64,000 nt of DNA from Sphagnum compactum (GCA_965153455.1 OZ234494.1:12090001-12154000); one strand, 5' to 3'; positions 28,645 through 56,000 are shown, numbered from the stretch's first letter. Program-made: numbers and translations. Notes: generated by a model from the sequence alone, not told the origin.

Positions 28645-29826
28645 TTAAGCCCATTTTACAACCTTTTTTTTTAAAATTTTAATCTTAGTTTAAAATTTGG
28701 TCCAATTTGCTCATCTATGAAGCAAATTACAAATCCAACCATTAGATTCAAAGTTTTAAAACTCATAGTTCTTTAATACAAATTATATCAGTAATCAAAC
28801 AAATAATAATGAAACAAAATTAGAATGAACTCATATAGGATTGGGCAAGTGCTACCCAAGATTGTATATGAAGATTCACTAACCAAATAAAACTTTTGAC
28901 GTGGATTATTGCATATTCCAATATGGCACTCACAATGACTTATTACTCACTCACAAAAAAATACATCAAAACAAATCGCAATTTTTGAAGGAAGAATGAA
29001 ACCATGCAACTTTTGTGTGAATGTGAGAATCCATGACAGCAAATTCAAAAGGAACGCAATGTTGGAACTCATGGGCTACCTCATAAATGAGTTCGGCCCC
29101 CTCACACGTGGGAAAGTCATTGCATAGGGTTTTCTTGACAACCCCCTCCCTAAATCCACTTGGATGTGCTCAAGTGGCAAACAGTTAGAAAGATATTCAA
29201 TTTGTGCACCCAATGAAAAAATAAAAAATAAAAATATTTAAATCTCTGCCATCTACTTCGATTTACCAAACCAAAACAGCTCAGTTTTGGCTTATCCGGC
29301 AGTTAGGGGTTAAGTAAAAAGCTGGTAACTTACATGGGCATTGGCCATCTTCAAGATTTTTCCATTTAAATTCACACACTTCTTTTTTGATAAGTAGATC
29401 TAGCTATGGCAATATATACATTAAAAAATTCATATGTGATGCATCTTCATACCTCAACTTGATTTTTTTTCAAAAACATATATATTATATTCAAACTTAG
29501 ACCTGATTATGCTCCCAAATACAAAGAGCACACTTGTCCCTCCATTCCCAAAAGATGAAATGTACCAAGACCAGTGTGGTATGTCAAAAGCCTAATACTA
29601 GTCCAACACTGGTTACAACATGAACAACTGCAAAGGCTCAAAAGGGTGAGATCCAACAGAACAAAGATTGCATGTGAGTACATAGAAGATAAATTGCTAG
29701 TTTTAGATTATATACAGTGTCTTTTTGTTTTTTTGCAGAACCAGGAAAAAAAAGTTGTAAAACCATATGCCACACATCAAGGTCTGGGTGGTAGATTATG
29801 TCATTTTTTTATCACATTATATGACA

Positions 29827-30195
29827 CTAGTAGGTACCCGTGACCTTCGGACACTGTGAAATTTCTTCCTTTCCCCCTCTCCCCAAAACCCAAAAAAGGA
29901 AAAAATTGGCTGCACTGATTGCATACCGAGCCTTCCTCAGTGCCTGCCTGAAATTTTTATTATGGGCCAGTACCCCTTCATAACAGGATGGATCCCTATT
30001 GTGCTATAAATAGGGCAGAATGGGCAATTCCCTGAAAGAGTGGAGTTTTGCAATTTAAGAAGGGCCCGCACCCTCCCTCCCCCCTCTTTGCCTTGGATGG
30101 ATGGAGGGACGGATGGATGACGGGATGGACGACCGGATGGATGGATGGAAAGGATGACCGCCAACCACAACAGGACAAAACCTAAAATATTATTA
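29827..30195 (-). mobile_element. Mini non-autonomous Helitron unit A
   Basis: 3' motif ctagtaggtacccgtgaccttcggacactgtgaa; 5'-subterminal ggatggaaagga.gac repeats; body nearly identical to 30620-30939. Confidence 0.75.
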
Positions 30196-30219
30196 TCTTA
30201 TATATAAAAGCTACAGTGA

Positions 30220-30939
30220 CCCGTGACCTTCGGACACTGTGAAGTCCCCCAAAAGTGAGTGGGGGGAGAGGGGGGAGCAAAAAAAGACAAAATTATCAAA
30301 TATATTTGGTTGGTTTTGAGTGTGTAGTCAAAGATATAGAAGCATGATTACAGTTGTTTACTTCATATCCGGCTTTATAGCCAGTTTTGGCACAATCTTC
30401 TTGAGGAAGGTCGTCACATTTTTCTATGGAAGATCCCCACTGTGGCTACAAACAAAAAATCTTAGAAAAATAAAATAAAAAACAACACTGCTAGGGACGA
30501 CTTGGGGTCGGTCCCTCCTGGCAACTACCTCCTTACTATGAGATAAATTGCCACATGAATGTCTCCTCCATTCCATGGATGGATGACGGGACCCCCACCC
30601 CCAATAGAAAAAAGAAAAAATTTCTCCCTTTCCCCCTCTCCCCAAAACCCAAAAAAGGAAAAAATTGGCTGCACTGATTGCATACCGAGCCTTCCTCAGT
30701 GCCTGCCTGAAATTTTTATTCTGGGCCAATACCCCTTCATAACATGATGGATATCTATTGTGCTATAAATAGGGCAGAATGGGCAATTCCCTGAAACAGT
30801 GGAGTTTTGCAATTTAAGAAGGGCCCGCGCCCTCCCCCCGCCTCTTTGCCTTGGATGGATGACGGGACGGACGGATGGAAAGGACGACCGGATGGAAAGG
30901 ACGATCGCCGCAAGCCGACAAAACCACCGATATTATATA
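30220..30939 (-). mobile_element. Non-autonomous Helitron unit with 3' end trimmed by ~10 nt
   Basis: Starts cccgtgaccttcggacactgtgaagtcc (missing ctagtgggta) and ends in the 5'-terminal tract aaaaccaccgatattatata. Confidence 0.75.
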
Positions 30940-31247
30940 CTAGTGGGTACCCGTGACCTTCGGACACTGTGAAGTCCCCCGGATTGTTTAAACCATATTT
31001 ATTTTCTTTAAACCGGGAGCATGCCTCTCTCGGGCAAGACAGTTCCGGCGGATGCGCAGGTCCTCCAAAGGGGCCTCCTCTTCCTCTTCGTTCATTGGTT
31101 TAATGAGGGTTGTTGTGTTGAAGGGGGGGAGAGATAGGTGAAGAGGTCCGTTCTGTGGGAAAGGTAACCAGGGAAACAAAAGGGATCCCAAGTTCTAGTG
31201 TAAATCGGGAATTGTTTTTGTTTCCCTAGTGTAAAGTCGACTAAAAT
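30940..31247 (-). mobile_element. Internally deleted Helitron derivative joining the RepHel start to the 3' terminus
   Basis: CTAG at 30940-30943 plus terminal motif, adjacent to sequence encoding MNEEEEEAPLEDLRIRRNCLARERHA (31094-31017). Confidence 0.8.
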
Positions 31248-32455
31248 CTAGTGGGTACCCATGACCTTCGGACACGGTGAAGTCCCCCCTTTCTTTAAAC
31301 CTGGTTCATGTTTTAGTTTTTCCTAGAAACTTTTATCTTATTTATTTATTTATTTATAAGTGTTTTCTGTTTTTATTATTATTTCGTATAATAATAATAA
31401 AGTGTTTCTTTTTCACTTTTGTATTTTTGTTTATTTGGATGCAAGTTTGAAGTTTGGAGAAAGAAGACGCACCTCATTCTTTTTCAAGTAGGGTTTCTTT
31501 TCATTATTATAAGTTTTATTTTTTTCTTATTTTTTACTCTTTATTTGGTTTCTTCATTTTTTTTAAATTTTTTTGTCTTTTAAAATTATTTTATTGTATT
31601 TCCCTTTCCTTGTTTCATTTGTTTCCATGCCTTTTTTATAGTTTTTGCGTTTTTACTTTTTTTTTGTTTATGTTTGTTTCATGTTTTTATTTTTTCTATT
31701 TTTATTTTGCCTATCTTCATTTTTTTTCTATTTTCTTTTTCAAAAAGATTCTAGTTTTTCAAATATATTTTATAATGAAAATAATTTTAAAAAACTTTTG
31801 TATTTTTGTTTGATTAGATGCAGGTTTGAAGTTTGGAAAAAGAAGACAAACCTCATTTTTTTTTCAAGTATGGTTTTTTTCTCTTTCTTTTGCTCTCTGT
31901 TTTGTTTCTTATTTTTTGTCATCTATTTTTTAGTTTTCTTTTAAGATTATTTTACTGTATTTCCCTTTTTTGTTTCATGTTTAAATATATTTATTTTATA
32001 TGTTTTCATTTTTTTTCTATTTTTAAGTGTTATAAAAAAGTTTCTATTTGTTAAAGTGTTTTTATGTTTTTATTTTTTCTCTAGTTTTTTCCCTTTTAAA
32101 AATATATATTTGTTCTGTTTTTTTCTTTTTGGTTACAACTTTGTTTCATATTTTTAATTTATTAATAACTTGTTTTCTTCTTTTTTAATTTCAAATTTTT
32201 AATTTGTTGCTACCGCTTTCGTCGTCCTCCTCCTCTTCCATCATCTTCTTCTTCAGGGATGAGGAAGTTGGACGGATGGAAAGGACGACGAAAGTAGGGT
32301 TTTTTTTCATTATGTTTTCTTAATGTTTTTCTTCAGACACTGTGAAGTCCCCCGGTTTTTTTAAACCGTATTTATTTCAAAAAAAAATTTATTTCAAACA
32401 GCTACACATCATGAATGTAGCTTCTCGCGGAGCCATTTAAGAGATGCATGCAACT

Positions 32456-35400
32456 TCAAAGGAGGGCTTCTTCGTACACAACATTGCGCATAAGGCCAAT
32501 CCGGCCATGCATAGTGTCTGGCAATAGAACTTTGATGTTCGCTGGTGCCTTGGCACGTGAAAAGGCAACATAAAGTTGGCCATGCGAAAAAACGTCATCT
32601 GCGAGATGAAGGCCAACATGAGAGAGGGTCTGCCCTTGAGACTTGTTAATAGTCATCGCATAGGCTAGCCGCAAAGGAAATTGCTTCCTTGCAAATGTAA
32701 ATGGCAAACCGCTGTTATCGGAAATGAACTTAATGCGCGGGATAAAGGCCACATTACCAGCCCCTTTGCTTGTGATGATCTCAGCCTCAACGACTCGCAT
32801 CGTGAAGCGTTGAATAATCAGGCGTGTCCCATTGCATAGCCCAGCCAATGGGTCGAGATTGCGCAACAGCATCACTGGTGCGCCAATCTTGAACGACAGC
32901 TTGTGTGAAGGCATGCCACTGACTTCCAAAGTGTTGAGGAACTCAGAAGGGTATGTGTTCGCCACTTCCATGTCCTCTGCGAAATCCGCACTAAGGAAGT
33001 CAACTTGTGCGCCTGGAAGGTAGCTTAAAACCATCACGTTTATTAACGAAACCTCCTTGTTGCGAGGAGCCAAAATCGCGCGCTCACGCAAATACTCGTT
33101 TGTGACCTGGCCCTCGTGTAGTTGAGGGTAGATGGCCACAGCCATGGCTCGTGTGTCCGCGGGACGGAGTTTCATCATGTCTGGACATTTGATGTAGTCC
33201 TCATCGATGGTTTCTAACTCGTTGTTGCCAAGACAAAGAAGCCAGTCTGCAAAAGTGCGATTCCCAAGATCAGGGTGAACAGCAATGGCATCATCGGCCC
33301 GCATATTTTCCGAAAGACGGAATACCTCAACAGATTCCCATAGGTAGGAGTTCTTGATCGATGCAGAGACAATGTCTGCATGGGATCCCCGGGGAATGAC
33401 CGGAAGGACCTGGCGAAAGTCCCCTGACATGACGAAAACAATGCCGCCAAAGGGCTCATTCCTGTCTGTAAGGTCACGCAAAGTTCGATCCACCGCTTCA
33501 AAAGCGAGCTTATTAGTCATAGGAGCTTCATCCCAAAGGATGAGTTTCGTTTGACGGATTAGCGCCGCTAAATCATCCTGTTTACGAATATAGCATAAGG
33601 ACGTACAGTCGAGTGCGATCGGGATCTTCAGGTACGAATGGGCCGTTTGCCCTCCTGAGAGCAGAAGTGCAGCAATGCCTGAAGAGGCGACAGCAAGTGC
33701 AATATCGCCACACGAACGCACAACGTTCAAAATCAAGTTTTCAATGTAGGTTTTACCCGTTCCACCGGGGCCATCGATAAAGATGACTTTAGCGTGATGG
33801 GCAGCATATGCGCCATCATAGGCTGCACGTTGCCCATCATTGAGGCTCTCAATGGCCGTAGCCACCTTGATTTGCAAGACCTCGACATTGTAGTCGCGCT
33901 CCACCTCAAGCAGGCGATTGGTCTCTAATCGATCAAAGGCAACAGAGGGGTAGGAAGGCCAAAATCCTCGAGAGTTTTGCTAAATTTGGCAAGCGCATCC
34001 CGTAAGGAATGTAATGCCCAACTTTCAATTTGCTCAATGGACGGTTCCACTATACCGCGACGTTGCAATGCTACCTTGCAATCATCGCAAATGTGCTCCT
34101 TGTACTTGTCCCAGAGCATGCGCGGCTCACTTGGAACGCCAAAGGCCAAGATGGTCACAAACAGAGATCGCAATTGCGCACCTGTTTGCATGACAACTGC
34201 TTCTCCTAAGCAGGCATTCCACTCGTCATCCGAGTCATACAAACCAAGCGCAATGCACGCTGATTTGAATGTGTCATGGACAACACCGTTAATTGTGCGA
34301 AGAACTTCAAAAGAAACAGCACCTTTGACCTTCGTTAACAATGTACGCAAGAAATAGCGTTCGCCAGCGGAAGGACTAACGAAATAAAGGCGCCCGACAC
34401 AGCACCCTCTCTGCCGGATGGTCCATTTTTTCGTCCCATTGGTCCATGTAAACACAGAAGGAAAATCCATGTACGTGACTTTTCTTGCCAAGGGGTAATC
34501 AATATTGGCTTGGAAGTATTCGGTGAGCGTTGTTTTCTGGTTTTGCTCGCTATTAATAGTTTCAAAAATACTGGCACTTTCATTGTACATGACTTGATGC
34601 ATTCCAGGCTCGTGCACGGCAAGGCGTGTGATAGACGGTGTCCCTTCATGCATTCTAAAAGAGAAAAGACGCCACGATGCCTCAGAAGTAGAGACATAAC
34701 GTCCTTCAAGGTATGCTTTAATTTCATCGTGGTTTTGCCCCTCACCAGTAGCAACAACCACCTGCGCATTGTTCTCCTGGCCATGCCTATTCGCCTGCCT
34801 TTCGACAACGGCAATAGCACGGTCAGGTCCCTTGTACACATATTTGTACATGTACTTGACGGCAGATATGGACGAACATATCTCCACGTTGATGTGCGCG
34901 TGGTACTTGGTTGCCAAGTGAAGATTATACGGGACAATCCACCGGTTATCCACCACGCGTTGCATCTTTGGATCTACAAAAATGCGGGTTTGACGGCGTC
35001 GGTACTCGGGGTACCCGTCAACATCACAGCGCGTTTCTTCACTAAAGGAACGTGGGTACCTTTTCTTGCACTTTCCCTGCTCCATGCATTATGCGTTGAG
35101 AAAATCCGGACCACATGGCCCATGCACCATGCACGAAGTGACCGTCTCGTATGCCTCAGGATGGCGTATCGAATCCGGAATCTCGGCTGATACCATCGAA
35201 TCGAAGTCCTCGGTGGTGCGCAATTTTGACGCTTCATCTAAAATGAGCAAAATGTGTGCGTGGGGCAAGCCTCTCTTTTGAAACTCGATGACCCAAATTT
35301 TAGCAATCACATTGCCAAGAACACCGTCTTTGATGTCCCTCAAAAGGGTGTCAAGTTTCAAATTGAAAACGCGAGTTACTAACTCTGGGCGATCCTTGGC

Positions 35401-37440
35401 AATCTGCCCCAGGAGAAGCGCATCTGTAATCTCTTTCTATTTAGGGTTACAGGTAAATGTGACAAAAAGGTCCGGCTTACCAAATTTGCGGACCCTGGCC
35501 ATGGCATCTTGGTACAATTGGCCCATGGCGCGCTCACCACCCTGGAATGACGACGGGAGAATCATCTTCTGCCCGACGTCGTTCCCGAGAACGTCGCCAG
35601 CATTCAATGCATCTTGAAGACCATTGTACAGGTCGCAACGCAACTGTCGTTGGTTCTCGCGAATAAACTTCAAGCGGTTCTGTTCAGTACATGCATACGC
35701 GTCAACAATGAATTGTTGCAAAAGCCTTCCGGCTCGTAGAATCCATTCCTGGTTGACGCGATGCTGTAGCATGTATGCATAATATTGAAGCATGGTGACG
35801 CGCGCAGAACCGCGTTTACCACCTACTGTATTCTCGTCATCCTGGATGAACATGGAACCATCCCATTGAAATCCATTCAATGGGATGCCGTCATGCCATC
35901 CGTTGCGTCCATCTGGGAAGAGAAGGACGTAGTGCAGTGGTGCGTATGCACTGTGCAGGGGAGAAACGCGCTGAAAATAGCCATTAGTCGAACGCAGAAC
36001 AATGTCGCGTGCGTCTACTTCATCCACATCGCCCCCAACCATCAATGCGCCAACTTCGTCAACAGTTGGCGCATTATAACATCGCAAATTAGTGCGACGA
36101 TCGTTCACCAAACGAAGACTTAGCTCAATAGCCCCGCCTTGGAGCCGTTCCGCGGCCGTTTGGTAGATGATGGCATAGGGGTTGCATGCATGTAACATCG
36201 TTTGCAACGACTGCATGGTGTCCCTATTCAAGCCGCCAAAATTGCCCATCCGGCCATCAAGCTCGACATGCGGATCGCTGATGTATAGTTGGGCGAATTT
36301 TCGCGCCTCGCCAGGTTGAGGAAGTAGACTCCCCATCCTGTGGTAAAGCTCACCGCGAAGACGGTAAGTATAATTGCCAGGTTGGGCAACACTGGTATCC
36401 AGGTTGGCCCCCACAGACGTGAAGGCTAACGCACTGTTGTAAGAGCGGATGTGCTGACGAAAGTCTTTCGCATCCGTTTCTTTACCTGTAAGGAGCCGCC
36501 TGAGTGGCTCTGGTGGGGGTGCCAACGGGGGCAGCGTCACTTTACCTTGTGCGCAGCACAGTGTAAATTGCGGATTGGCGCACGAACTTGATGCGGCACG
36601 CTCTTCCAAAAAGTGTAGGGCGCCGCACTTGCCACACATAGTGGTCATTTCACCTAAAGTGTGGCGAAGACCACGATGGCTGCCATCAAATTCATGGCGC
36701 GCCAAAGGTATCATTTGATTCCCACCTTGGTTTGCGCGATCTAGTTCACGCTGGGCACTATGTGCTTGACGGTCAATGTTTCGAATTTCTTGGCGACGCT
36801 TTTCCGGCAATTGCTCATGCTGGCATTGGTGAGCCTGAGGATCCGTGTTATGCATTTCCTGTTGCCTATCAGAATGCAAAAGTGTCTGGGCGTTAACATG
36901 CCCAACATTTTCTAAAGCAATTTGCGCATCGTTGCACGCAGTTCTCTGAACTACCCGCCAGCTGGCATTCGCTGCATTCTGCGCATCGTTGTGCGCAGTT
37001 CTCTTAACTGCCCGTAGGTTGGCATCCGCCATAATCTGGGCATCGCTGCGCCATTTGGCATCTGCTGCAATCTGCCCATCGCTACGCACAGCCCTCTGAA
37101 TTGCCTGCCAGCTGGCATCCGCAGCAATTTGCGCATCACTACGTGCAGCTCTATGAGTTGCCCGCCGGTTGGCATCTGCCGCACATTGCTTCTCAGATCG
37201 AGCAGCGTGCCTCTCCCGAGCAAGACGATTTCGACAGATGCGCGGGTCCTCCAAAGGGGTTGCCCGCCGGCTGGCATCCGCAACAATTTGCGCATCACTA
37301 CGCGCAGCTCTATGAGTTGCCCGTCGGTTGGCATTTGCCGCACGTTGCTTCTCAGATCGAGCAGCATGCCTCTCCCGAGCAAGACGATTTCGACGGATGC
37401 GCGGGTCCTCCAAAGGGGCCTCCTCTTCCTCTTCGTTCAT
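32456..37440 (-). pseudogene. Helitron RepHel transposase, disabled
   Basis: Colinear with the 1611-aa ORF but has TGG>TAG at 35437-35439, CAA>TAA at 35089-35091, a 1-bp deletion in the G run at 33947-33950, a 9-bp in-frame deletion (VIN) near 33811 and a 159-bp N-terminal duplication. Confidence 0.95.
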
Positions 37441-37583
37441 TGGTTTAATGAGAGTTCTTGTGTTGAAGGGGGGGGAGATAGGTGAAGAGGTCTATTCAAA
37501 GCAAAGTTGGCTGGAATGAGCTCACATTGCGTCCCCTTTCCACATGTCGGAACTCCAGAAATCATAATCTTCAGGGCCTCCAT
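37437..37583 (-). other. 48-aa uORF containing a captured adenylate kinase P-loop exon
   Basis: MEALKIMISGVPTCGKGTQCELI resembles plastid adenylate kinase LKIMISGAPASGKGTQCELI; the TGA overlaps the RepHel ATG. A second ADK-like piece (IMISRVPASGKG) lies at ~37816-37857. Confidence 0.8.
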
Positions 37584-37874
37584 TCTTGCCGAGGCCTAAA
37601 CTAATTTTGCCAGAGGAAAAAAAAAAAAAAAAAAACCAATAAGTCGAAATATTTTGATGGTGCAGCAGCAGCAGCGCTTTGGAATTCTGCCTGGACAACG
37701 AAGATAGAATTGTGAAAACAATGTGAAACTGGCTAAATTTACAGCAATATTCCTTCCATCAGAAATGCTTTCCAATTTGCAATTCAGGAAATTTCTTCAA
37801 TGCACCTTGGCTGCATCCCCTTTCCAGAAGCCGGAACTCTAGAAATCATAATCCTCTTAAAAGACTGATCAATA

Positions 37875-39229
37875 TCAATCAATCCTTGGTTGAGTTCTGG
37901 GGGCAGGTTTTCAGGAAATTGAGGATGATGTGGTTATATTCCTTGGGATTCTCAATTTGAGGTATGTGCCCACAATTCTTCATCACAACCAACTTTGCTC
38001 TGCTTGTACCTAAATGTCTGCATAGTTAATGCCTAAGTTAATGCCCTGGTTGCAAGGGCATTCCTGAAATATGTGCTATTCCTTGGCTATGTGCAGAATA
38101 TCAAAAGGGCCATACTGGTACATGCCTCCAACCTCAAGCCATAGGCCCGTCATTGTGGATTCTTTTTTTTCACCCAAATTCTCATATAGGAGTGGTATTT
38201 TGTTTTCTTAGGATTAAAAAAATGAAAATAAGAAAATCCAGCTGTACATGATGATGATGACTCCAGGAAAGTTCAAAGTCTTGAAACAACCAATTTTCTC
38301 AATTGGATTTTTCAGGTTTGTGATAATGGATGATGATGAGTTAAACTCACTTGGAGCATATCGTGAAAAATGAATTTCAAGAGCCACCTTGCCAGCTGCT
38401 GGAAGTCATAACGCTGAGATGCTGCTGCCTTTTGTTTGGCATTGGCTGATGCCCCTGTTGCAGTTGTTTCTGCCACCTCCCCCCTATCGTCAGCGCTGAT
38501 GGCATCAGCACCTGGATTGGTCTAGCTCTCTGTGACCCGCGTATGAAGAAGAGCATTTGGAGGGTCTTGTGAAGTGCTGGCGGTAACACCACCGCCCAGA
38601 TTCCTTGAAATAGGAGATGCAATAACCCGCACCTACTTTAGCTCCCCTATTCCAAATATCCCGATTGAAACTTTGGCACCCACATTGCCAGTCCTGCTGT
38701 TGCTCTCCATGGGTTCCTCCAAAGATCCGCACAAGGTTTCCCACTTTCTTCCACATGAGAGTATTGCGACCGGCCTCGGATGATCATGTTGGAATTGACT
38801 TGGTGACCACTATTAGACCCCATACCTGGTTCACCTAAGCCATAAGCCAGTTCCGATTATCACATCGTCACTGGAATTTGAGAGCATTGGCATTGGGTTG
38901 AAGACGTAGAGGTTCTTCCTGATCACTAATTATGTGACATGGCCATGTTTGCATAACTTTCGTAAAACAAATTTCTCTTGATAGGCAGGCAACTATCACA
39001 TTGCTTTGTATGTCACATTCGCAAGGAAGACCTTCATTCCCTTGACTGAAGATGGCAACATGACCTCCGATATGCTGGACAGATTGCTCCTGGCAAGAAG
39101 CTCGTCCAAGCTAGCTGACATGAAACGCACCCCTGAGCTGGAAATCACCACTTTCTTCACAAAATTTGGATACATCTCTGCCATCCGAAATGCCACCATG
39201 CCACCATAGTTAGTTCCCACCAATTGTAT
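37875..39229 (-). pseudogene. Captured alpha/beta-hydrolase exons, with unidentified sequence interleaved at ~38345-38790
   Basis: Exon from 39229 reads LVGTNYGGMVAFRMAEMYPNFVKKVVISSSG (nucleophile elbow); exon from ~38017 reads HLGTSRAKLVVMKNCGHIPQIENPKEYNHIILNFL (catalytic His region). AG acceptors are retained and stops are present. Confidence 0.8.
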
Positions 39230-44141: not shown

Positions 44142-44247
44142 CTTGGGGTTACACCCCTCTGTGGAGTCCAGCAAAATCTCGCATGGGGCCTTCAGCTTCA
44201 CAGAATGGACCATTTTGAAGGAGTGAAATGCCTTGTGGCCATGGAAA
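44142..44247 (-). pseudogene. Single captured 106-nt exon of an unidentified gene
   Basis: ttcag| acceptor and aag|gtaagt donor; open frame FHGHKAFHSFKMVHSVKLKAPCEILLDSTEGCNPK. Confidence 0.5.
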
Positions 44248-44812: not shown

Positions 44813-47800
44813 TCAAAGGAGGGCTTCTTCGTACACAACATTGCGCATAAGGCCAATCCGGCCATGCATAGTGTCTGGCAATAGAACTTTGATGTTCGCT
44901 GGTGCCTTGGCACGTGAAAAGGCAACATAAAGTTGGCCATGCGAAAAAACGTCATCTGCGAGATGAAGGCCAACATGAGAGAGGGTCTGCCCTTGAGACT
45001 TGTTAATAGTCATCGCATAGGCTAGCCGCAAAGGAAATTGCTTCCTTGCAAATGTAAATGGCAAACCGCTGTTATCGGAAATGAACTTAATGCGCGGGAT
45101 AAAGGCCACATTACCAGCCCCTTTGCCTGTGATGATCTCAGCCTCAACGACTCGCATCGTGAAGCGTCGAATAATCAGGCGCGTCCCATTGCATAGCCCA
45201 GCCAAGGGGTCAAGATTGCGCAACAGCATCACTGGTGCGCCAATCTTGAACGACAGCTTGTGTGAAGGCATGCCACTGACTTCCAAAGTGTTGAGGAATT
45301 CGGAAGGGTATGTGTTCGCCACTTCCAAGTCCTCTGCGAAATCCGCACTAAGGAAGTCAACTTGTGCGCCTGGAAGGTAGCTTAAAACCATCACATTTAT
45401 TAGCGAAACCTCCTTGTTGCGAGGAGCCAAAATCACGCGCTCACGCAAATACTCGTTTGTGACCTGGCCCTTGTGTAGTTGAGGGTAGATGGCCATAGCC
45501 ATGGCTCGTGTGTCCGCAGGAGGGAGTTTCATCATGTCTGGACATTTGATGTAGTCCTCATCGATGGTTTCTAACTCGTTGTTGCCAAGACAAAGAAGCC
45601 AGTCTGCAAAAGTGCGATTCCCAAGATCGGGGTGAATAGCAATGGCATCATCGGCTCGCATATTTTCCGAAAGACGGAATACCTCAACAGATTCCCATAG
45701 GTAGGAGTTCTTGATCGATGCAGAGACAATGTCTGCATGGGATCCCCGGGGAATGACCGGAAGGACTTGGCGAAAGTCCCCTGACATGACGAAAACAATG
45801 CCGCCAAAAGGTTCATTCCTGTCTGTAAGGTCACGCAAAGTTCGATCCACCGCTTCAAAAGCGAGCTTATTAGTCATAGGAGCTTCATCCCAAAGGATGA
45901 GTTTCGTTTGACGGATTAGCGCCGCTAAATCATCTTGTTTACGAATATAACATAAGGACGTACAGTCGAGTGCGATCGGGATCTTCAGGTACGAATGGGC
46001 CGTTTGCCCTCCTGAGAGCAGAAGTGCAGCAATGCCTGAAGAGGCGACAGCAAGTGCAATATCGCCACACGAACGCACAGCGTTCAAAATCAAGTTTTCG
46101 ATGTAGGTTTTACCCGTTCCACCGGGGCCATCGATAAAGATGACTTTAGCGTGATGGGCAGCATATGCATTGATTACGCCATCATAGGCTGCACGCTGCC
46201 CATTATTGAGGCTCTCAATGGCCGTAGCCACCTTGACTTGCAAGACTTCAACATTGTAGTCGCGCTCCACCTCAAGCAGGCGATTGGTCTCTAATCGATG
46301 AAAGGCAACAGAGGGGGTAGGAAGGCCAAAATCCTCGAGAGTTTTGTTAAATTTGGCAAGCGTATCCCGTAAGGAATGTAATGCCCAACTCTCAATTTGC
46401 TCAATGGACGGTTCCATTATACCGCGACGTTGTAATGCTACCTTGCAGTCATCGCAAATGTGCTCCTTGTACTTGTCCCAGAGCATGCGCGGCTCACCTG
46501 GAACGCCAAAGGCCAAGATGGTCACAAACAGAGATCGCAATTGCGCACCTGTTTGCATGACAACTGCTTCTCCTAAACAAGCATTCCACTCGTCATCCGA
46601 GTCATACAAACCAAGTGCAATGCACGTTGATTTGAATGTGTCATGGACAACACCGTTAATTGTGCGAAGAACTTCAAAAGAAATAGCACCTTTGACCTTC
46701 GTTAACAATGTACGCAAGAAATAGCGTTCGCCAGCGGAAGGACTAACGAAATAAAGGCGCCCGACACAGCACCCTCTCTGCCGGATGGTCCATTTTTTCG
46801 TCCCATTGGTCCATGTAAACACAGAAGGAAAATCCATGTACGTGACTTTTCTTGCCAAGGGGTAATCAATATTGGCTTGGAAGTATTCGGTGAGCGTTGT
46901 TTTCTGGTTTTGCTCGCTATTAATAGTTTCAAAAATACTGGCACTTTCATTGTACATGACCTGATGCATTCCAGGCTCGTGCACGGCAAGGCGTGTGATA
47001 GACGGTGTCCCTTCATGCATTCTAAAAGAGAAAAGACGCCACGATGCCTCGGAAGCAGAGACATAACGTCCTTCAAGGTATGCTTTAATTTCATCGTGGT
47101 TTTGCCCCTCACCATTAGCAACAACCACCTGCGCATTGTTCTCCTGGCCATGCCTATTCGCCTGCCTTTCGACAACGGCAATAGCACGGTCAGGTCCCTT
47201 GTACACATACTTGTACATGTACTTGACGGCAGATATGGACGAACATATCTCCACGTTGATGTGCGCATGGTACTTGGTTGCCAAGTGAAGATTATACGGG
47301 ACAATCCACCGGTTATCCACCACGCGCTGCGTCTTTGGATCTACAAAAATGCGGGTTTGACGCCGCCGGTACTCCGGGTACCCGTCAACATCACAGCGCG
47401 TTTCTTCACTAAAGGAACGTGGGTACCTTTTCTTGCATTTTCCCTGCTCCATGCATTGTGCGTTGAGAAAATCTGGACCACATGGCCCATGCACCATGCA
47501 CGAAGTGACCGTCTCGTATGCCTCAGGATGGCGTATCGAATCCGGAATCTCGGCTGATACCATCGAATCGAAGTCCTCGGTGGTGCGCAATTTTGACGCT
47601 TCATCTAAAATGAGCAAAATGTGTGCGTGGGGCAAGCCTCTCTTTTGAAACTCGATGACCCAAATTTTAGCAATCACATTGCCAAGAACACCGTCTTTGA
47701 TGTCCCTCAAAAGGGTGTCAAGTTTCAAATTGAAAACGCGAGTTACTAACTCTGGGCGATCCTTGGCAATCTGCCCCAGGAGAAGCGCATCTGTAATCTC

Positions 47801-49648
47801 TTTCCATTTAGGATTACAGGTAAATGTGACAAAAAGGTCCGGCTTACCAAATTTGCGGACCCTGGCCATGGCATCTTGGTACAATTGGCCCATGGCGCGC
47901 TCACCACCCTGGAATGACGACGGGAGAATCATCTTTTGCCCGACGTCGTTCCCGAGAACGTCGCCAGCATTCAATGCATCTTGAAGACCATTGTACAGGT
48001 CGCAACGCAACTGTCGTTGGTTCTCGCGAATAAACTTCAAGCGGTTCTGTTCAGTACATGCATACGCGTCAACAATGAATTGTTGCAAAAGCCTTCCGGC
48101 TCGTAGAATCCATTCCTGGTTGACGCGATGCTGTAGCATGTATGCATAATATTGAAGCATGGTGACGCGCGCAGAACCGCGTTTACCACCTATTGTATTC
48201 TCGTCATCCTGGATGAACAAGGAACCATCCCATTGAAATCCATTCAATGGGATGCCGTCATGCCATCCGTTGCGTCCATCTGGGAAGAGAAGCACGTAGT
48301 GTAGTGGTGCGTATGCACTGTGCAGGGGAGAAACGCGCTGAAAATAGCCATTAGTCGAACGCAGAACAATGTCGCGTGCGTCTACTTCATCCACATCGCC
48401 CCCAACCATCAATGCGCCAACTTCGTCAACAGTTGGTGCATTATAACATTGCAAATTAGTGCGGCGATCGTTCACCAAACGAAGACTTAGCTCAATAGCC
48501 CCGCCTTGGAGCCGTTCCGCGGCCGTTTGGTAGATGATGGCATAGGGGTTGCATGCATGTAACATCGTTTGCAATGACTGCATGGTGTCCCTATTCAAGC
48601 CACCAAAATTGCCCATCCGGCCATCGAGCTCGGCATGCGGATCGCTGATGTATAGTTGGGCGAATTTTCGCGCCTCGCCAGGTTGAGGAAGTAGACTCCC
48701 CATCCTGTGGTAAAGCTCACCGCAAAGACGGTAAGTATAATTGCCAGGTTGGGCAACACTGGTATCCAGGTTGGCCCCCACAGACGTGAAGGCTAACGCA
48801 CTGTTGTAAGAGCGGATGTGCTGACGAAAGTCTTTCGCATCCGTTTCTTTACTTGTAAGGAGCCGCCTGAGTGGCTCTGGTGGGGGTGCCAACGGGGGTA
48901 GCGTCACTTTACCTTGCGCGCAACACAGTGTAAATTGCGGATTGGCGCACGAACTTGATGCGGCACGCTCTTCCAAAAAGTGTAGGGCGTCGCACTTGCC
49001 ACACACAGTGGTCATTTCACCTAAAGTGTGGCGAAGACCACGATGGCTGCCATCAAATTCATGGCGCGCCAAAGGTATCATTTGATTCCCACCTTGGTTT
49101 GCGCGATCTAGTTCACGCTGGGCACTACGTGCTTGACAATCAATGTTTTGAATTTCTTGGCGACGCTCTTCCGGCAATTGCTCACGCTGGCCCTGGTGAG
49201 CCTGAGGATCTGTGTTATGCATTTCATGTTGCCTATCAGAATGCAAAAGTGTCCGGGCGTTAACACGCCCAACATTTTCTAAAGCAATTTGCACATCGTT
49301 GCACGCAGTTCTCTGAACTACCCGCCAGCTGGCATTCATAACATTTTGCGCATTGTTGTGTGTAGTTCTCTTTACTGCCCGTCGGTTGGCATCCGCCGTA
49401 ATCTGGGCATCGCTGCGCTTGCTGGCATCTGCTGCAATTTGCACATCACTACGCACAACTCTCTGAGTTTTTCGTCGGCTGGTATCCGCAGCAATTTGCG
49501 CATCACTACGCGCAGCTCTATGAGTTGCCCGTCGGTTGGCATCTACCGCACGTTGCTTCTCAGATCGAGCAGCGTGCCTCTCCCGAGCAAGACGATTTCG
49601 ACGGATGCGCGGGTCCTCCAAAGGGGCCTCCTCTTCCTCTTCGTTCAT
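44813..49648 (-). CDS. Helitron RepHel transposase (Zn finger, HUH/Y2 Rep, PIF1-family SF1B helicase), 1611 aa, intronless
   Basis: CGKC...CCAQGKV Zn finger; Rep motifs FVTFTCNPKW, EFQKRGLPHAHILL and KYMYKYVYKG; helicase motifs GPGGTGKT, WDEAPM, GDFRQVLPV, GLCNGTRL, AMTINKSQGQT and HGQLYVAFSR. Confidence 0.97.
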   Translation of the reverse strand: MNEEEEEAPLEDPRIRRNRLARERHAARSEKQRAVDANRRATHRAARSDAQIAADTSRRKTQRVVRSDVQIAADASKRSDAQITADANRRAVKRTTHNNAQNVMNASWRVVQRTACNDVQIALENVGRVNARTLLHSDRQHEMHNTDPQAHQGQREQLPEERRQEIQNIDCQARSAQRELDRANQGGNQMIPLARHEFDGSHRGLRHTLGEMTTVCGKCDALHFLEERAASSSCANPQFTLCCAQGKVTLPPLAPPPEPLRRLLTSKETDAKDFRQHIRSYNSALAFTSVGANLDTSVAQPGNYTYRLCGELYHRMGSLLPQPGEARKFAQLYISDPHAELDGRMGNFGGLNRDTMQSLQTMLHACNPYAIIYQTAAERLQGGAIELSLRLVNDRRTNLQCYNAPTVDEVGALMVGGDVDEVDARDIVLRSTNGYFQRVSPLHSAYAPLHYVLLFPDGRNGWHDGIPLNGFQWDGSLFIQDDENTIGGKRGSARVTMLQYYAYMLQHRVNQEWILRAGRLLQQFIVDAYACTEQNRLKFIRENQRQLRCDLYNGLQDALNAGDVLGNDVGQKMILPSSFQGGERAMGQLYQDAMARVRKFGKPDLFVTFTCNPKWKEITDALLLGQIAKDRPELVTRVFNLKLDTLLRDIKDGVLGNVIAKIWVIEFQKRGLPHAHILLILDEASKLRTTEDFDSMVSAEIPDSIRHPEAYETVTSCMVHGPCGPDFLNAQCMEQGKCKKRYPRSFSEETRCDVDGYPEYRRRQTRIFVDPKTQRVVDNRWIVPYNLHLATKYHAHINVEICSSISAVKYMYKYVYKGPDRAIAVVERQANRHGQENNAQVVVANGEGQNHDEIKAYLEGRYVSASEASWRLFSFRMHEGTPSITRLAVHEPGMHQVMYNESASIFETINSEQNQKTTLTEYFQANIDYPLARKVTYMDFPSVFTWTNGTKKWTIRQRGCCVGRLYFVSPSAGERYFLRTLLTKVKGAISFEVLRTINGVVHDTFKSTCIALGLYDSDDEWNACLGEAVVMQTGAQLRSLFVTILAFGVPGEPRMLWDKYKEHICDDCKVALQRRGIMEPSIEQIESWALHSLRDTLAKFNKTLEDFGLPTPSVAFHRLETNRLLEVERDYNVEVLQVKVATAIESLNNGQRAAYDGVINAYAAHHAKVIFIDGPGGTGKTYIENLILNAVRSCGDIALAVASSGIAALLLSGGQTAHSYLKIPIALDCTSLCYIRKQDDLAALIRQTKLILWDEAPMTNKLAFEAVDRTLRDLTDRNEPFGGIVFVMSGDFRQVLPVIPRGSHADIVSASIKNSYLWESVEVFRLSENMRADDAIAIHPDLGNRTFADWLLCLGNNELETIDEDYIKCPDMMKLPPADTRAMAMAIYPQLHKGQVTNEYLRERVILAPRNKEVSLINVMVLSYLPGAQVDFLSADFAEDLEVANTYPSEFLNTLEVSGMPSHKLSFKIGAPVMLLRNLDPLAGLCNGTRLIIRRFTMRVVEAEIITGKGAGNVAFIPRIKFISDNSGLPFTFARKQFPLRLAYAMTINKSQGQTLSHVGLHLADDVFSHGQLYVAFSRAKAPANIKVLLPDTMHGRIGLMRNVVYEEALL

Positions 49649-49791
49649 TGGTTTAATGAGAGTTGTTGTGTTGAAGGGGGGGGAGATAGGTGAAGAGGTC
49701 TGTTCAAAGCAAAGTTGTCTGTAATGAGCTCACATTGCGTCCCCTTTCCAGATGTCAGAACTCCAGAAATCATAATCCTCAGGGCCTCCAT
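49645..49791 (-). other. 48-aa uORF containing a captured adenylate kinase P-loop exon
   Basis: MEALRIMISGVLTSGKGTQCELITDNF...; polypyrimidine tract plus AG acceptor at ~49805; TGA overlaps the RepHel ATG. Confidence 0.8.
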
Positions 49792-50119
49792 TCCTGTCGG
49801 GGCCTAATTTTGCCAGAGGAAAAAAAAAAAAAAAACCAATAAGTCGAAATATTATGATGTTGCAGCAGCAACAACGCTTTGGAATTCTGCCTGGACAACA
49901 ACGAAGATAGAATTGTAGAAACAGTGTCAAACTGGCTAAATTTACAGCAATATTCCTTCCATCAGAAGTGCTTTCCAATTTGCAATTCTAGAAATTTCTT
50001 CAATGCACCTTGGCTGCAATGAGCTCACATCACATCGTCACTGGAATTAGAGAGCATCGGCATTGGGTTGAAGACGTGGACGTTCTTCCTGATCACTAAT
50101 TATGTGACATGGCCATGTT

Positions 50120-50389
50120 TGCACAACTTTCGTAAAACAGATTTCTCTTGATAGGCAGGCAACTATCACATTGCTTTGTATGTCACATTCGCAAGGAAGA
50201 CCTTCATTCCCTTGACATGACCTTCGATATGCTGGATAGATTGCTCCTGGCAAGAAGCTCGTCCAAGCTAGTCGACATGAAACCCACCCCTGAGTTGGAA
50301 ATCACCACTTTCTTCACAAAATTTGGATACATCTCTACCATCCGAAATGCCACCATGCCACCATAGTTGGTTCCCACCAATTGTATCTG
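50120..50389 (-). pseudogene. Captured alpha/beta-hydrolase exon (sister of 38960-39229)
   Basis: LVGTNYGGMVAFRMVEMYPNFVKKVVISNSG; 13-bp deletion relative to copy 1 near 50216. Confidence 0.8.
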
Positions 50390-52233
50390 GTTCTGAAAAA
50401 CAATTTCGCAAGAAGAAAAAAAAAAAAAAACCAATAAGTCAAAATAGAGCATGAATAATTGATGACAACATGTTATTATGATGTTGCACCAGCAGTAACG
50501 CTTTGAAACATGTGGGAGCAATAAATCATATAAAACTCATGACCAAAAATCATAGTCTTTTAAGTTGAAGGTTTATTAGTATTGAAAAAATATATCCTAC
50601 AAAGAAGCCGAATCTCACAATTTGTCCTAAAATTTCCCTATGCTTTTGGGTAATGAAGTATTATTAGGGTTTAGGGTGGTTCAGCGAGAACTAATCTTAT
50701 CTTTTGTGAACGGAAAAAAAAAATTCTCCTCATTAATATACATTAGGAAGGAAATTGTTCCCCAAAAAAGACCACTAAATACCTGTTTACAAAATATTCT
50801 AAACATTAATATACACTGGTGCAAAACAAATTCGCCCCATTTTTGCTGTTGGGAATCCAAAGAGCTCCTGGTCCTTGTAACTTTCAGCCTGCAAGAAAAA
50901 ATTCCAAATCAAAGAGCACCTTCAGATAGCATCACAAAAACACTAACTCAGCACTTTAGGATATGGGATATATTTCTTACATTATATATTCCATATATTC
51001 CCAAGTGCAAAAAATTATTGAAACAAAAGCATAGTATCCCCAAAAAAGCAAAAGTAAAGATTTTATAACAAAATTGACAACAAACAACAAAAAAATTCTG
51101 CAAAATACATTTGTTGTGAACCAAAATGTGTAAGAAACATCACTTGGTGCATTTTGCTTGGAATTTCATACGAAGTGGATCTAGTAGTCTCTGTGGTGAC
51201 CACCTATCATGCTCTTCACTTTCCGGATGAAACCTTCATAACCCCCGGCTCCAGGACCTCCTCCAGCACCATAACCCCCGGCTCCAGTACCTCCTTCGAC
51301 ACCATATCCCCCAGCTCCAGGAGCTCCTTCGGCACCATATCCACCACGAGACAGTCCTTAAAAACTCCTGGCCACTCAACTTACGACGCCCACATGGGCC
51401 TGCATTTGTGTGTAGTGTGGACAGAGGACACGCGGGATGCATGGAGAGGTGCATGCCAATCAACTGTCCCAAATATAGAGGAAGAGGCATGCTCATCATT
51501 TTCAAATCCCTTATCTGCAAGTCACAGTACCCAATGGCGTCTTGTTTCTCTCACCACTCTGGCTCCATCAGGGAATTGGAAAAAAAAAAACAAAAAAACT
51601 GTTGTGAAGCAGTGCTTTTTTTTTTTTCTGGCCCAGATTTCTACTGTTTAAAAACTCTGGCTACCAATGCAAAGCGGTCCTTTTTTTATGGAGATGTAAT
51701 GGTTTTATGTTTGCAATGGAGTTTTCCATTTGTTTCTCGATATATATATATTTATATTTATAATTTTTTTTAAAAGAGAAAAAAACGTGTGAAGAGATTG
51801 ACGAAATGATGATGCTTTGAACATGGTTTTGTAACGTGTAATCTATTTAAGAAAACTTATCCAATTCTTTATGCTAGGTGAAAGACATGAGCGAGCATAC
51901 TCAAGGGTCCCATGCCACTTAGCCATCACCGCCTCATGTCGGGCCCCTCATTCCATTGCAAGAATACCCCATTCCACCTCTCTTCTCCTCCTCGGGACCT
52001 ACGCAAAACTTTGCCATTGTGAATTTCCCTTCTTTGCGGATACCACTGAAAGAGGGGATAGGGAGTGGAAGCAGGCCCAAAGACAGGGTGACTTTCTGGA
52101 TAACTCCAGTACACAGAAAACAAAAAGGGGGACCAAAACTGGGTTTCGTCACCTAAAGTCGTCACTGCACTTCGACCCCTAAAGGACGACCACCCAAGGA
52201 CAAAACCACCGATATTATATATATAGATAGAGA

Positions 52234-53056
52234 TATAAAAGCTACAGTGATGTCTGTGTGTCGCAAGACATTACGACGTTTTAACATTACGCCGGAACCG
52301 GTCCATTTTTCAACAACTTTAGGCAACCATATTCTCTTCTGAAATTAGTCTGTGTGGACAAAAATTGGGCAGTGCCTGGAAGATTCCAGTCACTGCCCAT
52401 TCCCTGTGGAGCTTCCCAAGATGTAACTTCCCCAGATGTAACTGACTCCAGAGAAAAAAGAAATAGGGGCAGTCTGATTTTTTGAGGCAAAAGATTTGGT
52501 AGACCAGAAAAAAAATATTTAGGCCTTGGACAGCCCAGAATCTTTTTTTTTTTTTTTTTTTTTGTATTGACCAAGACTACCTTTTTTTTCTTTTAGCTAC
52601 TGTCCGTCCCGATTAAGGGGATGGATGAAATGTCCGTCCAGCTTGATGACGAAACAGATTTAGGGGAAGACCAGAAAAAAAATATTTAGGCCTTGGACAG
52701 CCCAGAATCAATTTTTATTTTATTTTTTGTATTGACCAAGACGACCTTTTTTTTCTTTTAGCTACTGTCCGTTCCAATTAAGGGGATGGATGAAATGTCC
52801 GTCCGGCTTGATGACGGGACGAATTTTGGGGAAGCTTTTTTTCTTTTAGCTACTGTCCGTCCCGATTAAGGGGATGGGGCCAGCAGGGGCGGGGGGGGGG
52901 GGGGGCGGGACGGGCGGGGAAGGACCGGGCGGGTGGGGGGGCACGGGCAGGGAAGGACCGGGCGGGGGGGGGCACGGGCGAGGAAGGACCGGGCGGGGGG
53001 GGCCAGCATGGGCGGGGAAGGACCGACGGGTGCATTATGCACCGGGTTCACACTAG
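52234..53056 (+). mobile_element. Non-autonomous Helitron B (its 5' end TCTTATATATAAAAGCTACAGTGA lies at 30196-30219)
   Basis: Hairpin GGTGCAT-T-ATGCACC (53029-53043), 9 nt, then CTAG|T; internal ~165-bp duplication (52502 and 52668); G-rich tract at 52870-53025. Confidence 0.85.
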
Positions 53057-56000
53057 TATGACATAATCTTCTAGTGATGATCATACATTGGTATCAGTAA
53101 ACAAAATCTCTGCTGAACATGAAACTTTTTAAAAATTGTTGAATTTGCCACTCCAGACCTTAATGTCATGTAATGGACTCATCCTTGCCCATTATGTTGA
53201 GTGGGTCACTAAACTTGCCCTAATGGGTTCACCTGGTGCCTTACCCAACATAATGGGTATGAGCTTGACTAGTAACCAGGCCAGTTCAACACTAATTATA
53301 TTATTTTCAGAAATGTTGAAATTTTCAAAAAAAAATTTATTTTCAGTAATATTTATTCTGAAGGAATATATGATTTGTTGAAATGGAATCTCAGAATTTA
53401 TTAATTAATGGACAAACTAATGGCCAAGGTACTGCCCTTTTCCATAGTACATTATAAGTTGACAATGTAATCCCTTTAATCTTCTTGCTTCCTTGTTGCT
53501 TGCAATCCATGGAATAATGTCTTTCAAGGCGATCCCAACTTTAATCTAATTCAAGGTTCCATATAGGTAACATATATTGAATGTTGATTTTCACCATTTG
53601 CCTAAAGAGGCTATGATTGAATGTTTGTACAAATTGCACGTTGTAGATCACTAAACAATAGGATGTCTAATTTTTAATTTTTTACATGAAGTCTTTCAGC
53701 AATTACTTCATATTCACAATTATCAATTGTTATATTCTACAAAATACATAAAGGAATTTAACCGATAGTTATGTTCACAAGTGTTTGTGTATCCATTTTC
53801 TTAAAAAATAAAAATTCAAAATGATGTAATTCCTTTTGTTGGAAATTTGATTTATAATATACATATTTTGCTAATGCCTTGAAAATATATGTGAAATGTT
53901 TCCAAGGTTCATGCAAGAAGGAAATTTATAAAGTCCAATGTTCTACAAGACACGGTAAAACCTATTATTGAACATTGATGAAATCAAAGACAAAATGTTG
54001 GAAAATGGTGACACCCTTGATTATGACATGATCCATGTATGAAAATGAATTTGTAATGTTGTGTAAAACATTGTGAATAGGTAAAGTCATCCCCAACTCA
54101 TTTCTTTTTTACCATCTTCATTAGCTTAGGTTTGCTTGTCCATGCTTGATTAGAAACACATCTATGGTACTTCTAACATTCATGTTTGTAAGTTGTTCCT
54201 ATTGTTCCTATTGGCATTTTTTTTAAAATGTTTATTTGTTCTTGTATGTGTTCAAAATAGTTCCAATTAATGTTATAATAGTTTTTCGAGTGTAAAACTT
54301 CCAATCATGTCCCAACAAGGCCAAACATTTTTCACATGGAATTTGCAAGGAAAAAAACTATTGACCAAATTTGTAACCTTTGGGTACTATAAACTTGCAA
54401 GATAGCACAATGAGGTCAAATCCATGAAGGATCACCTTTCCACGTGCACACAAATATTTTACAAGGAAATTAAGACTTGGTAGTAAATATCTACTACCAA
54501 GTTACACAACCAACATACAAACTTTCAAGATTTTTCAATGATTTCAGGCTTTTGTACTTGCAATGGATTATCCCTTGTTGTTCACACAAATTTTATACAT
54601 AAGAAAATTTGGGAGTGAAGGACTAAAAGAAGGTTTGAAATGCAATGTTATACAACAAGTGTTCAAGCATTCAAGGTATTTCAATGATTTTGTAATTGTT
54701 AACCATGACAATCCTTCATCATCAATCAAATTGTATGTAACAAAATTTGGGAATGAAAAGGAAAAGAAGGCTTCAAATATAAAGTACACACTAAACATTA
54801 AATTACATGGATGATAAGTGGTTTTACTTATAACCACATAAGAAATTACATGGATATATTGAATTGAATTTCACTTAAAATAATTGGAAATTAATCATTA
54901 ATTTTTCAACTATATTTTAGTCGTAATGGACACATGCAACTAAAAGTGCCTATAGTTGCCTTGGACAAGTGCCATATCTCCCAACTGTAAAATCAATATT
55001 TAATTTTAAAATATCATTAAATTATAATACTTATAATATTTCATATCTTATTGATATTTGTCTAAACAACAAAATTAAAATATCACTTTTAAATTCATTT
55101 CAACAAAAAAAAAACTTGAATTTCCTTGCTTAATAAGATTTCAATGACCATACTTTTGAAGAAAAACTTAAGCACATGATTTATTAATGAAAAAGATTAT
55201 TCAGTTAACACAACAATAAACTAATGATATATTATTTCCCAGAATTTTAACCAATATTAATTTAAAACTATATTATAAAATTATGATGTAAAATATATCA
55301 TAATTTTCTTTATAAAATTTTAATTTAGATGTAATAATATATAATTTATTGAAATATAATATCAACAATAAATTGTAAATATTTTACATTTAAAAATATG
55401 TTCTAGTTTTGTTGAATTAATTATATTATAAGTGATCTATATTAATTTGGAAATATTAGATTCCAAAGTAAAAGATATTAGATAACTTTCATGCCTAACT
55501 ACTTCATTTTTTTCTTAATAACTACTTCCTTTCCCTATTAACTTTCTTAATAACTATCTCCCACCTTTCCTAATAAACTATCTCCATTTTATGACTGCCT
55601 CATTCTTTTTTTCTATCCACCAACATGGATATGAGAAAACAAATTAACATGTGTTTGATGTCCATGAAATGTATATTAATTTAAATTATACTTGACATTG
55701 ACATAACTAATGATGAACTATTGAAAATCGTATGAAAACACAAGAAAACAACAAAAAGCTTATCGTCACTAATATTGCACAATAACATGGATCTCAAATT
55801 TTTGTATTGACTAGTCTTTAACATTGACTTAAAGAAGCAAAACAAGTTTGTGATTGACCAAGACTCAATTGTAACATCAAGGGTAAAAAACATATTAAAT
55901 ATCCAATCAACCAAATTACAAAAACAATAAGTCAAAATCATTTAGTTAATTGAGAATTACAATGTAATTTAGATTGATACTAAGCAAATTGATGTGCATG

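Follow-up and report, generated by a model that had tools for sequence, protein, structure and literature searches.

A 23-kb Helitron block with two outward-facing 3' ends and a 7-bp target-site duplication in Sphagnum compactum

A 64,000-nucleotide stretch of Sphagnum compactum DNA (GCA_965153455.1 OZ234494.1:12090001-12154000; referred to here as the window, with positions counted from its first letter) contains, at 29827-53056, a 23,230-bp insertion of Helitron elements with a genuine 7-bp target-site duplication (TSD). The duplication is accepted as genuine because the orthologous locus of a related moss is colinear with the window, lacks the insert and carries the 7-mer once, and because the 7-mer is single in 19 of 19 copies of the miniature inverted-repeat transposable element (MITE) into which the block was inserted. 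Both outer ends of the block are Helitron 3' termini, one of a family designated A and the other of a family designated B. We suggest, with a rough probability of 0.45, that this arrangement reflects a noncanonical Helitron insertion into the stem-loop of the MITE in which both strands were broken, through the paired integration of either two 3' ends or a preformed composite.

Results

Read directly, the left junction is atcacatta-TATGACA (29820-29826) followed by CTAG (29827-29830) and taggtaccc, the bases after the 7-mer being CTAGtaggtaccc, and the right junction is gggttcaca-CTAG (53053-53056) followed by TATGACA (53057-53063) and taatcttc, the bases before the 7-mer being gggttcacaCTAG. 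A preliminary description of the window had given the junctions as TATGACA|CTAG on the left and CTAG|TATGACA on the right, with each 3' CTAG joined to a target T, and this is what the sequence contains on both sides. Between 29000 and 54000, the plus strand has no TATGACA other than the two copies of the TSD, to which no strand is assigned. The probability that an exact 7-mer would match at both junctions by chance is ~6e-5, and chance is set aside because the empty site was recovered. The CTAG ends face outward, on the minus strand at 29827-29830 (family A) and on the plus strand at 53053-53056 (family B), and both joints are CTAG|T at an A|T step, cacATTA|TATGACA on the top strand and aagATTA|TGTCATA on the bottom strand. 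These two steps lie on opposite strands, 7 nt apart, with the polarity of 5' overhangs (top nick on the left, bottom nick on the right).

A separate resemblance was seen at the right end of the block, where the last bases of B (53047-53056, TTCACACTAG) are similar to the target to the left of the 7-mer (29811-29819, ATCACATTA), and the BLAST alignment of the ortholog runs 9 nt into B (contig position 5853 onward against 53048 onward). The similarity may be due to chance or may represent homology that aided the joint.

The empty site was sought by scanning metagenome contigs with 22 nt of the right flank (53064-53085), which yielded 19 moss DNA loci comprising 15 distinct sequences. To the left of the scan pattern, all 19 carried a homologue of the left flank of the window (GGTCTGGGGTGGCAGATTATGTCATTTTCTT..CCACATTA plus the 7-mer), with the 7-mer position present once; the variants at this position were TATGACA in 5 loci, CATGACA in 6, TACAACA in 3, AATGACA in 2, and TGTGACA, TTGGACA and TATTATG in 1 each. 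An empty site of the form cacatta-7-mer-taatcttc with one 7-mer, as had been predicted, was recovered in two orthologous loci (L016 and L007) and 17 paralogous loci. The related moss contig L016, which the alignment identifies as the ortholog of the window locus, matches window 24852-29826 with its positions 892-5867 in eight blocks of 86-95% identity, the last of which (29516-29826) is 95.2% identical, and matches window 53048-55489 with its positions 5853-8528. Nothing lies between the left and right blocks, the 7-mer is present once, the insert is absent, and colinearity extends over about 5 kb to the left and 2.6 kb to the right of the site. L007 has the same insert-free arrangement with a single 7-mer and a shorter left arm.

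The inserted block itself had no match in the 19 metagenome loci (~190 kb), and no further copy of the flanks was found within the window. Contigs and reads of 4 of the 21 runs were also compared with 52000-57000. In run X10, a 1400-nt contig of single-copy depth agrees with the right flank from 53255 to 53057, where the agreement ends exactly, and continues for 1201 nt that do not fit element B; the X10 sample seems to have the empty site. In run X6, no contig crossed 53056/53057 among the contigs listed, which is evidence in neither direction. Sequence of the window flank was also found in runs labeled moss metagenome and six coded organisms, and the window is eukaryotic DNA that contains relics of F-box/LRR genes. 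Two other segments, 27623-28644 and 28976-29515, are absent from L016 as well and look like other sites at which the two mosses differ by an insertion. A ~0.9-kb repeat accounts for the first, which is its right-hand copy; the repeat also has an inverted copy at 20808-21712 and copies in loci L005, L009 and L014.

The flanks of the block are the two parts of a ~145-bp MITE with terminal inverted repeats (TIRs) of 19 to 20 bp (29779-29797 and 53142-53161), as defined by alignment with 15 distinct copies. The left part (29779-29826, plus strand) begins with the left TIR aaggtctgggtggtagatt at 29779-29797, includes the 5' arm of an internal hairpin at 29793-29804 and ends in the left TSD; the right part (53064-53161, plus strand) ends in the right TIR aatttgccactccagacctt at 53142-53161, and the 3' arm of the hairpin is at 53058-53069. 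The insertion site therefore falls within the 3' arm of the hairpin. In L016 the hairpin has a 14-bp stem (-10.6 kcal/mol, z -3.55; 0 of 200 shuffles fold as well), a structure that would favor single-stranded exposure of both strands, and the reconstructed empty site, ATTA|TATGACA|TAAT, is nearly palindromic. The segment 53002-53335 is high copy in the four runs compared, with a depth of 1500-38000 over the MITE versus roughly 5-30 in unique flank. Adjoining the MITE is a second short palindromic repeat at 53165-53335 (CCCATTATGTTG...CCCAACATAATGGG), which is of very high copy number in the same runs.

The termini of the Helitron families were defined from the copies inside the window alone. 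Copies of the family-A 3' terminus (GTGTCCGAAGGTCACGGGTACCCACTAG, minus strand) lie at 29827, 30940, 31248, 41305, 43829 and 44306, with a truncated occurrence at 30220, and family-A 5' ends are at 30939, 41304 and 52233. A 5' TC is present at the start of B at 30196, where it follows an A, and at 41304 and 52233; neither outer junction of the block is a 5' end. The motif GGGTWCMCACTAG, with no more than 2 mismatches, has 8 matches in the window versus 1.88 expected, a count that none of 100 shuffles reached; six of these are minus-strand matches inside the block, another is a plus-strand match at 53044-53056, and the eighth is part of a third family, at 23034. Directly before the motif in B is a 3' hairpin with a 6-bp stem (-8.4 kcal/mol, z -2.11), and the last 13 nt of B match those of family A at 11 positions. 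As a 5' end of family A, the minus-strand sequence TCACTGTAGC was considered and dropped; it is absent from 2 of the 4 family-A 5' ends and is also contradicted by contigs of three runs that continue from it into the body of B at multicopy depth.

Outside the block, at 23034-23083 on the minus strand, lies the 3' end of a third Helitron family, consisting of the hairpin CGTGCCTTGCAGGCACG (z -2.4) directly before the motif GGTTACCACTAG|T in a (TA)n tract, and thus of the same hairpin plus GGGT..CACTAG design; it is adjoined by tandem repeats of ~60 bp at 23119-23494.

The preliminary description had treated the block as a complex of two outer elements whose 5' ends meet head to head at 30195/30196. 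The outer termini are indeed Helitron 3' ends of opposite orientation, and the 5' end of B does adjoin the leftmost family-A element, A1, at that point, but the block is not merely two elements: only 24 nt of B are present there, and the body of B, at 52251-53056, is separated from them by a 22-kb tandem array of A elements. A1 (29827-30195, minus strand) is a 369-bp nonautonomous family-A Helitron, recognized by its 3' terminus GGGTACCTACTAG at 29827 and by comparison within the repeat family; its 5' end, which starts TA..., is ~7-9 nt short of the family-A 5' end and looks truncated, and a self-comparison gave 93.6% identity between the body of A1 and 30618-30896. The first 24 nt of B (TCTTATATATAAAAGCTACAGTGA, 30196-30219, plus strand) begin at a canonical A|TC step at 30195/30196. 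The remainder of this nonautonomous element, its body and 3' end (52251-53056, plus strand), terminates in the hairpin GGTGCA-tta-TGCACC at 53029-53043 followed by GGGTTCACACTAG, which ends at 53056. The last 17 to 18 nt of the B 5' piece recur solely at 52233-52250, directly before the body of B, and because contigs of three runs span 52250/52251 at multicopy depth, the 5' piece and the body are continuous in other copies of B. B and the A-type element at 43954-44048 have a module in common, which has the same orientation with respect to the 3' end in both.

The inner array (30220-52233, minus strand; 22,014 bp) was resolved by self-comparison and termini into six family-A elements head to tail, so that with A1 the whole block contains seven such elements on the minus strand. 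They are A2 (30220-30939), whose 3' end lacks its last 10 nt, an element at 30940-31247, autonomous copy 1 at 31248-41304, elements at 41305-43828 and 43829-44305, and autonomous copy 2 at 44306-52233; the copy number within the array depends on the assembly. At 41304/41305 (CTAG|TCTAAC) and 30939/30940 (CTAG|TATATAAT), the head-to-tail joints between A elements are precise and contain no host base, a feature that rolling-circle concatemers, or elements inserted at the end of a neighbor, would be expected to show. The array is itself flanked by a 17-bp direct repeat, TATAAAAGCTACAGTGA, at 30203-30219 and 52234-52250, inside the 5' end of B, and its two joints are a canonical A|TC step at 52233/52234 and the 3' end without 10 nt at 30220. 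The repeat possibly marks a second duplication-making Helitron insertion at the same locus; a microhomology join is also possible at 30220, judging by the resemblance of B ...CTACAGTGA to the missing terminus CTAGTGGGTA. The outer event probably concerned a ~1.2-kb head-to-head pair composed of A1 (369 bp) and B (830 bp), with the array either a second event that also made a duplication (17 bp) or already present in the donor and arriving with the pair.

Autonomous copy 2 encodes an intact RepHel transposase of 1638 amino acids (44813-49729, minus strand), identified from its open reading frame (ORF), its Pfam domains and its match to Helraiser and located on the same strand as the family-A termini. 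It has the HUH motif HAH, the tyrosine pair in YMYKYVYK and the Walker A motif GPGGTGKT; Pfam assigns Helitron_like_N (1.7e-57) and PIF1 (5.5e-71), the only domains being of the Rep and Pif1 types, and the match to Helraiser 7LCC (E 3.3e-302) is near full length, covering query residues 178-1621. By ORF reading, the RepHel gene of autonomous copy 1 (32456-37491, minus strand) is divided among three frames of 507, 387 and 684 amino acids. The two copies are 97.2% identical over 32292-37259 and 44648-49626 in the self-comparison, and their homology reaches 39745 and 50901. There are 35 ORFs of at least 110 amino acids in the block; no transposase family was detected in the 13 further ORFs that were scanned, and the rest mostly overlap the two RepHel genes.

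Several smaller features were seen within the autonomous copies. Four to five tandem units of ~150 bp at 40198-40895 are found in copy 1 only, within a segment (39746-40900) that is absent from copy 2. Near the 5' end of each copy, at 40913-41139 and 51224-51350, minus-strand fragments code for a glycine-rich repeat (GGYGAGG-like) and are probably a captured piece of a host gene, and a weak fragment resembling an alpha/beta-hydrolase (E 3e-4, under the Pfam cutoff) is located at 50204-50536. At 52022, many contigs in all four runs begin to fit the window while sharing a different upstream sequence (consensus GATTTAATAA), which indicates that the window copy has a breakpoint there relative to commoner genomic copies of the repeat.

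Discussion

Helitrons are described as making no TSD, a canonical insertion having a 5' TC on one side and CTAG on the other (PMC5876387, PMC4778049), and TSDs are explained by the transfer of two strands at staggered positions (PMC5876387). The preliminary description had invoked staggered nicks on both strands; the A|T steps fit this proposal and, with one step on each strand and 7 nt between them, the locus is most simply read as the product of a staggered event on two strands. We suggest that RepHel would nick both strands of a locally melted, nearly palindromic target and that on each strand a Helitron 3'-OH end would resolve the tyrosine-linked 5'-T of the target, so that the normal 3' strand-transfer step would be carried out twice. 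The free 3'-OH ends of the target would then prime fill-in over the 7 nt and the incoming strands, generating the duplication, and the two 5' ends would come to lie inside, closed head to head; the shortfall of ~7-9 nt at the 5' end of A1 would be expected had the middle been closed by host end joining. Equivalently, a preexisting head-to-head piece of A and B may have been excised by cuts at its two 3' ends and then inserted. The initial insert would probably have been the ~1.2-kb pair of A1 and B, with the 22-kb array added later or already present in the donor. In vitro, Helraiser is reported to cleave its right end on both strands, exactly where the transposon ends (PMC4778049), which supports paired 3'-end integration.

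Four other histories were rejected. Had each A|T step received its own canonical insertion independently, the order would be B-7-mer-A, with tails inward and no duplication, and the opposite order is seen. The joining of two MITE copies by deletion is ruled out by the colinearity of the ortholog on both sides, an inverted duplication by the direct rather than inverted orientation of the flank repeat, and a TSD of the long interspersed nuclear element (LINE) type by the lack of a poly(A) tract or reverse-transcribed structure.

A number of considerations weigh against paired integration. The mechanism rests on one event at one locus, whose junctions are known from assembly sequence, and a donor copy of the left junction may exist elsewhere in the genome. 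In a target this rich in AT, A|T steps are frequent (about 3 in 14), and the position of the left joint on such a step is therefore weak evidence that it was made by the enzyme. Both L016 and L007 carry A rather than T at the first position of the TSD; a T at insertion is inferred from the paralogs, T or C being present there in 16 of 19. The 3' hairpin of family A is imperfect and weak and no better than those of shuffled sequences (z +0.5, +0.9). Helraiser, as characterized in PMC4778049 and PMC5876387, has an essential left end and integrates by one strand, and a joint made from two right ends is without experimental precedent.

Two other histories deserve consideration, and we regard each as unlikely, to a similar degree. 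In the first, the left 7-mer would be donor flank that was carried along. A different copy of this MITE family would first have received a minus-strand A by canonical insertion at TATGACA|TAAT, and B would then have inserted at the 5' edge of A; the top strand from ATTA|TATGACA through the reverse complement of A and B to CTAG would subsequently have moved as one Helitron with a makeshift 5' end, inserting canonically at ATTA|T in the present locus, and no break of the second strand would be needed. The high copy number of the MITE, the presence of an exact TATGACA in 5 of its 19 copies and a hairpin hot spot that could take repeated insertions are compatible with such a history, as is its reliance on the known single-strand chemistry (PMC5876387). 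However, three events are required, together with a 5' end that is not TC and an old A site that happened to be exactly 7 nt from the new B site. The left end of Helraiser is reported to be essential (PMC4778049). Moreover, the left MITE half in the window has the locus-specific letters of the ortholog up to ATCACATTA, so that nothing beyond the 7 nt can be donor derived; an insert at either step was found in 0 of 19 related MITE copies, and there is no other MITE fragment inside the block.

In the second, the transposase would have joined only the 3' end of B, at ATTA|T, and host repair would have done the rest: the other side, a linear or broken Helitron-derived DNA that ended at the A1 terminus because the transposase had cut that end at the donor, would have been end joined to a break 7 nt away, with fill-in producing the TSD. 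A precedent is provided by the CRe insertions of Chlamydomonas, for which TSDs of 7-19 bp, an intact 3' end at the canonical site and a noncanonical other side are described (PMC3627910). The inner array is similar in style: it has a 17-bp repeat, a joint at 52233/52234 that is canonical (A|TC) and, at 30220, an end that lacks 10 nt. A|T steps are also frequent in the target. Against this history, the left joint is exact to the last base of the A1 terminus, without loss, filler or microhomology, and it lies at ATTA|T on the bottom strand, where the nick is preceded by four bases identical to those on the top strand.

Far less credible is a cut-and-paste transposon of the DDE class, or a composite with pseudo-TIRs. 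The imperfect 14-bp inverted ends of the block (CTAGTAGGTACCCG versus CTAGTGTGAACCCG, 11 of 14 positions) and a 7-bp TSD are typical of such elements, which transfer their two 3'-OH ends to opposite strands at staggered positions, with the TSD produced as the gaps are repaired (PMC5876387). However, six recurrences of the left end sequence, all in one orientation, lie in tandem with RepHel genes, and the third family has the same 3' design; RNase-H-like chemistry differs from that of an HUH tyrosine enzyme, and neither a DDE gene nor any transposase family besides RepHel emerged from the 13 of 35 block ORFs scanned. A chance match or an assembly artifact is the least probable explanation of all, given the low chance expectation for the 7-mer; the highly repetitive interior of the block could have led to an erroneous copy number for the array, and the junctions are known from the assembly, but both flanks are colinear with one orthologous contig and one MITE consensus, which a misjoin could not create.

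The elements themselves are canonical Helitrons; the insertion event is not. They resemble Helitron1 elements (Helibat1/Helraiser) in their RepHel, in a 3' hairpin plus CTAG, in the joining of CTAG to T at an A|T step and in the TC at 30196, 41304 and 52233 (the outer element A1 starts TA and looks truncated), and the CTAG|TC joint at 41304/41305 in the array is like the Helraiser circle junction depicted in PMC4778049. They differ from these in the outer joints of the block, where both sides are 3' ends and 7 bp are duplicated. Helitron2 elements and Helentrons are described in PMC3627910 as having asymmetric TIRs, hairpins at both ends and a T-rich target (TT/TTTT), with an endonuclease domain added in Helentrons, whereas the block has an A|T target, TC...CTAG ends and only Rep and Pif1-type Pfam domains.

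The preliminary description had put forward opposed-end integration with a TSD as a mode not known to have been described. TSD-flanked Helitron insertions were in fact already known, in Chlamydomonas Helitron2, and it is the geometry of two opposed 3' ends that we did not find: full-text literature searches, covering articles without their supplements, returned no description of two opposed Helitron 3' ends with a TSD. The Chlamydomonas Helitron2 derivatives CRe-1, CRe-2 and CRe-3 are 5'-truncated, one-ended insertions with TSDs of ~7-19 bp and a 3' joint at the canonical site (PMC3627910; taken up in PMC10288648). The present insertion resembles them, as they are portrayed in PMC3627910, in an intact 3' end at a canonical target (the B joint at ATTA|T), another joint downstream with the same stagger polarity, a 7-bp TSD within their range and the lack of a normal 5' end on the other side. 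CRe elements are nevertheless Helitron2 (TTTT target, two hairpins) of a green alga with random 5' truncation on the other side (PMC3627910), whereas here a Helraiser-like Helitron1 of a moss has, on the other side, a second exact inverted 3' terminus at A|T.

Replitron-1 of Chlamydomonas reinhardtii (Craig 2023, PMC10288648) shares an HUH transposase, variable TSDs and a suggested double-strand break at the right end, but it belongs to another transposase group without a helicase and has "fuzzy" right ends, and the account of it drawn on here (PMC10288648) describes no opposed ends. The rolling-circle element IS91, from which one end alone can drive transfer and which is cited as an analogue in PMC3627910 and PMC4778049, is bacterial and, according to PMC3627910, is not associated with TSDs. 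We class the present event as a noncanonical Helitron integration, carried by otherwise canonical Helitrons.

Helitrons are partly defined by the absence of a target duplication, which is taken as the signature of single-strand integration. At this locus the TSD is confirmed by comparison with the empty site of an ortholog, and each joint is an exact Helitron 3' end at A|T, suggesting that action on both strands is sometimes possible for the enzyme, either by itself or in combination with host repair. A more general proposal, which we consider doubtful, is that either a segment with two inverted right ends (right terminal sequences, RTS) or a pair of separate right ends is joined, in a concerted, cut-and-paste-like reaction, to the two strands of a target prone to form hairpins, at A|T steps separated by a few bases and with a true TSD as the result, and that this is a recurrent second integration mode of a eukaryotic HUH transposase. 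If true, such a concerted mode would tie double-strand breaks made by the transposase to the unexplained TSDs seen in Chlamydomonas Helitrons and Replitrons. The arrangement suggests a concrete substrate design, two inverted right ends plus a hairpin target, and serves as a warning for annotation in that a TSD with short inverted ends does not exclude a Helitron. It also offers a possible route by which clusters of Helitrons, and the gene fragments that they carry, move as blocks.

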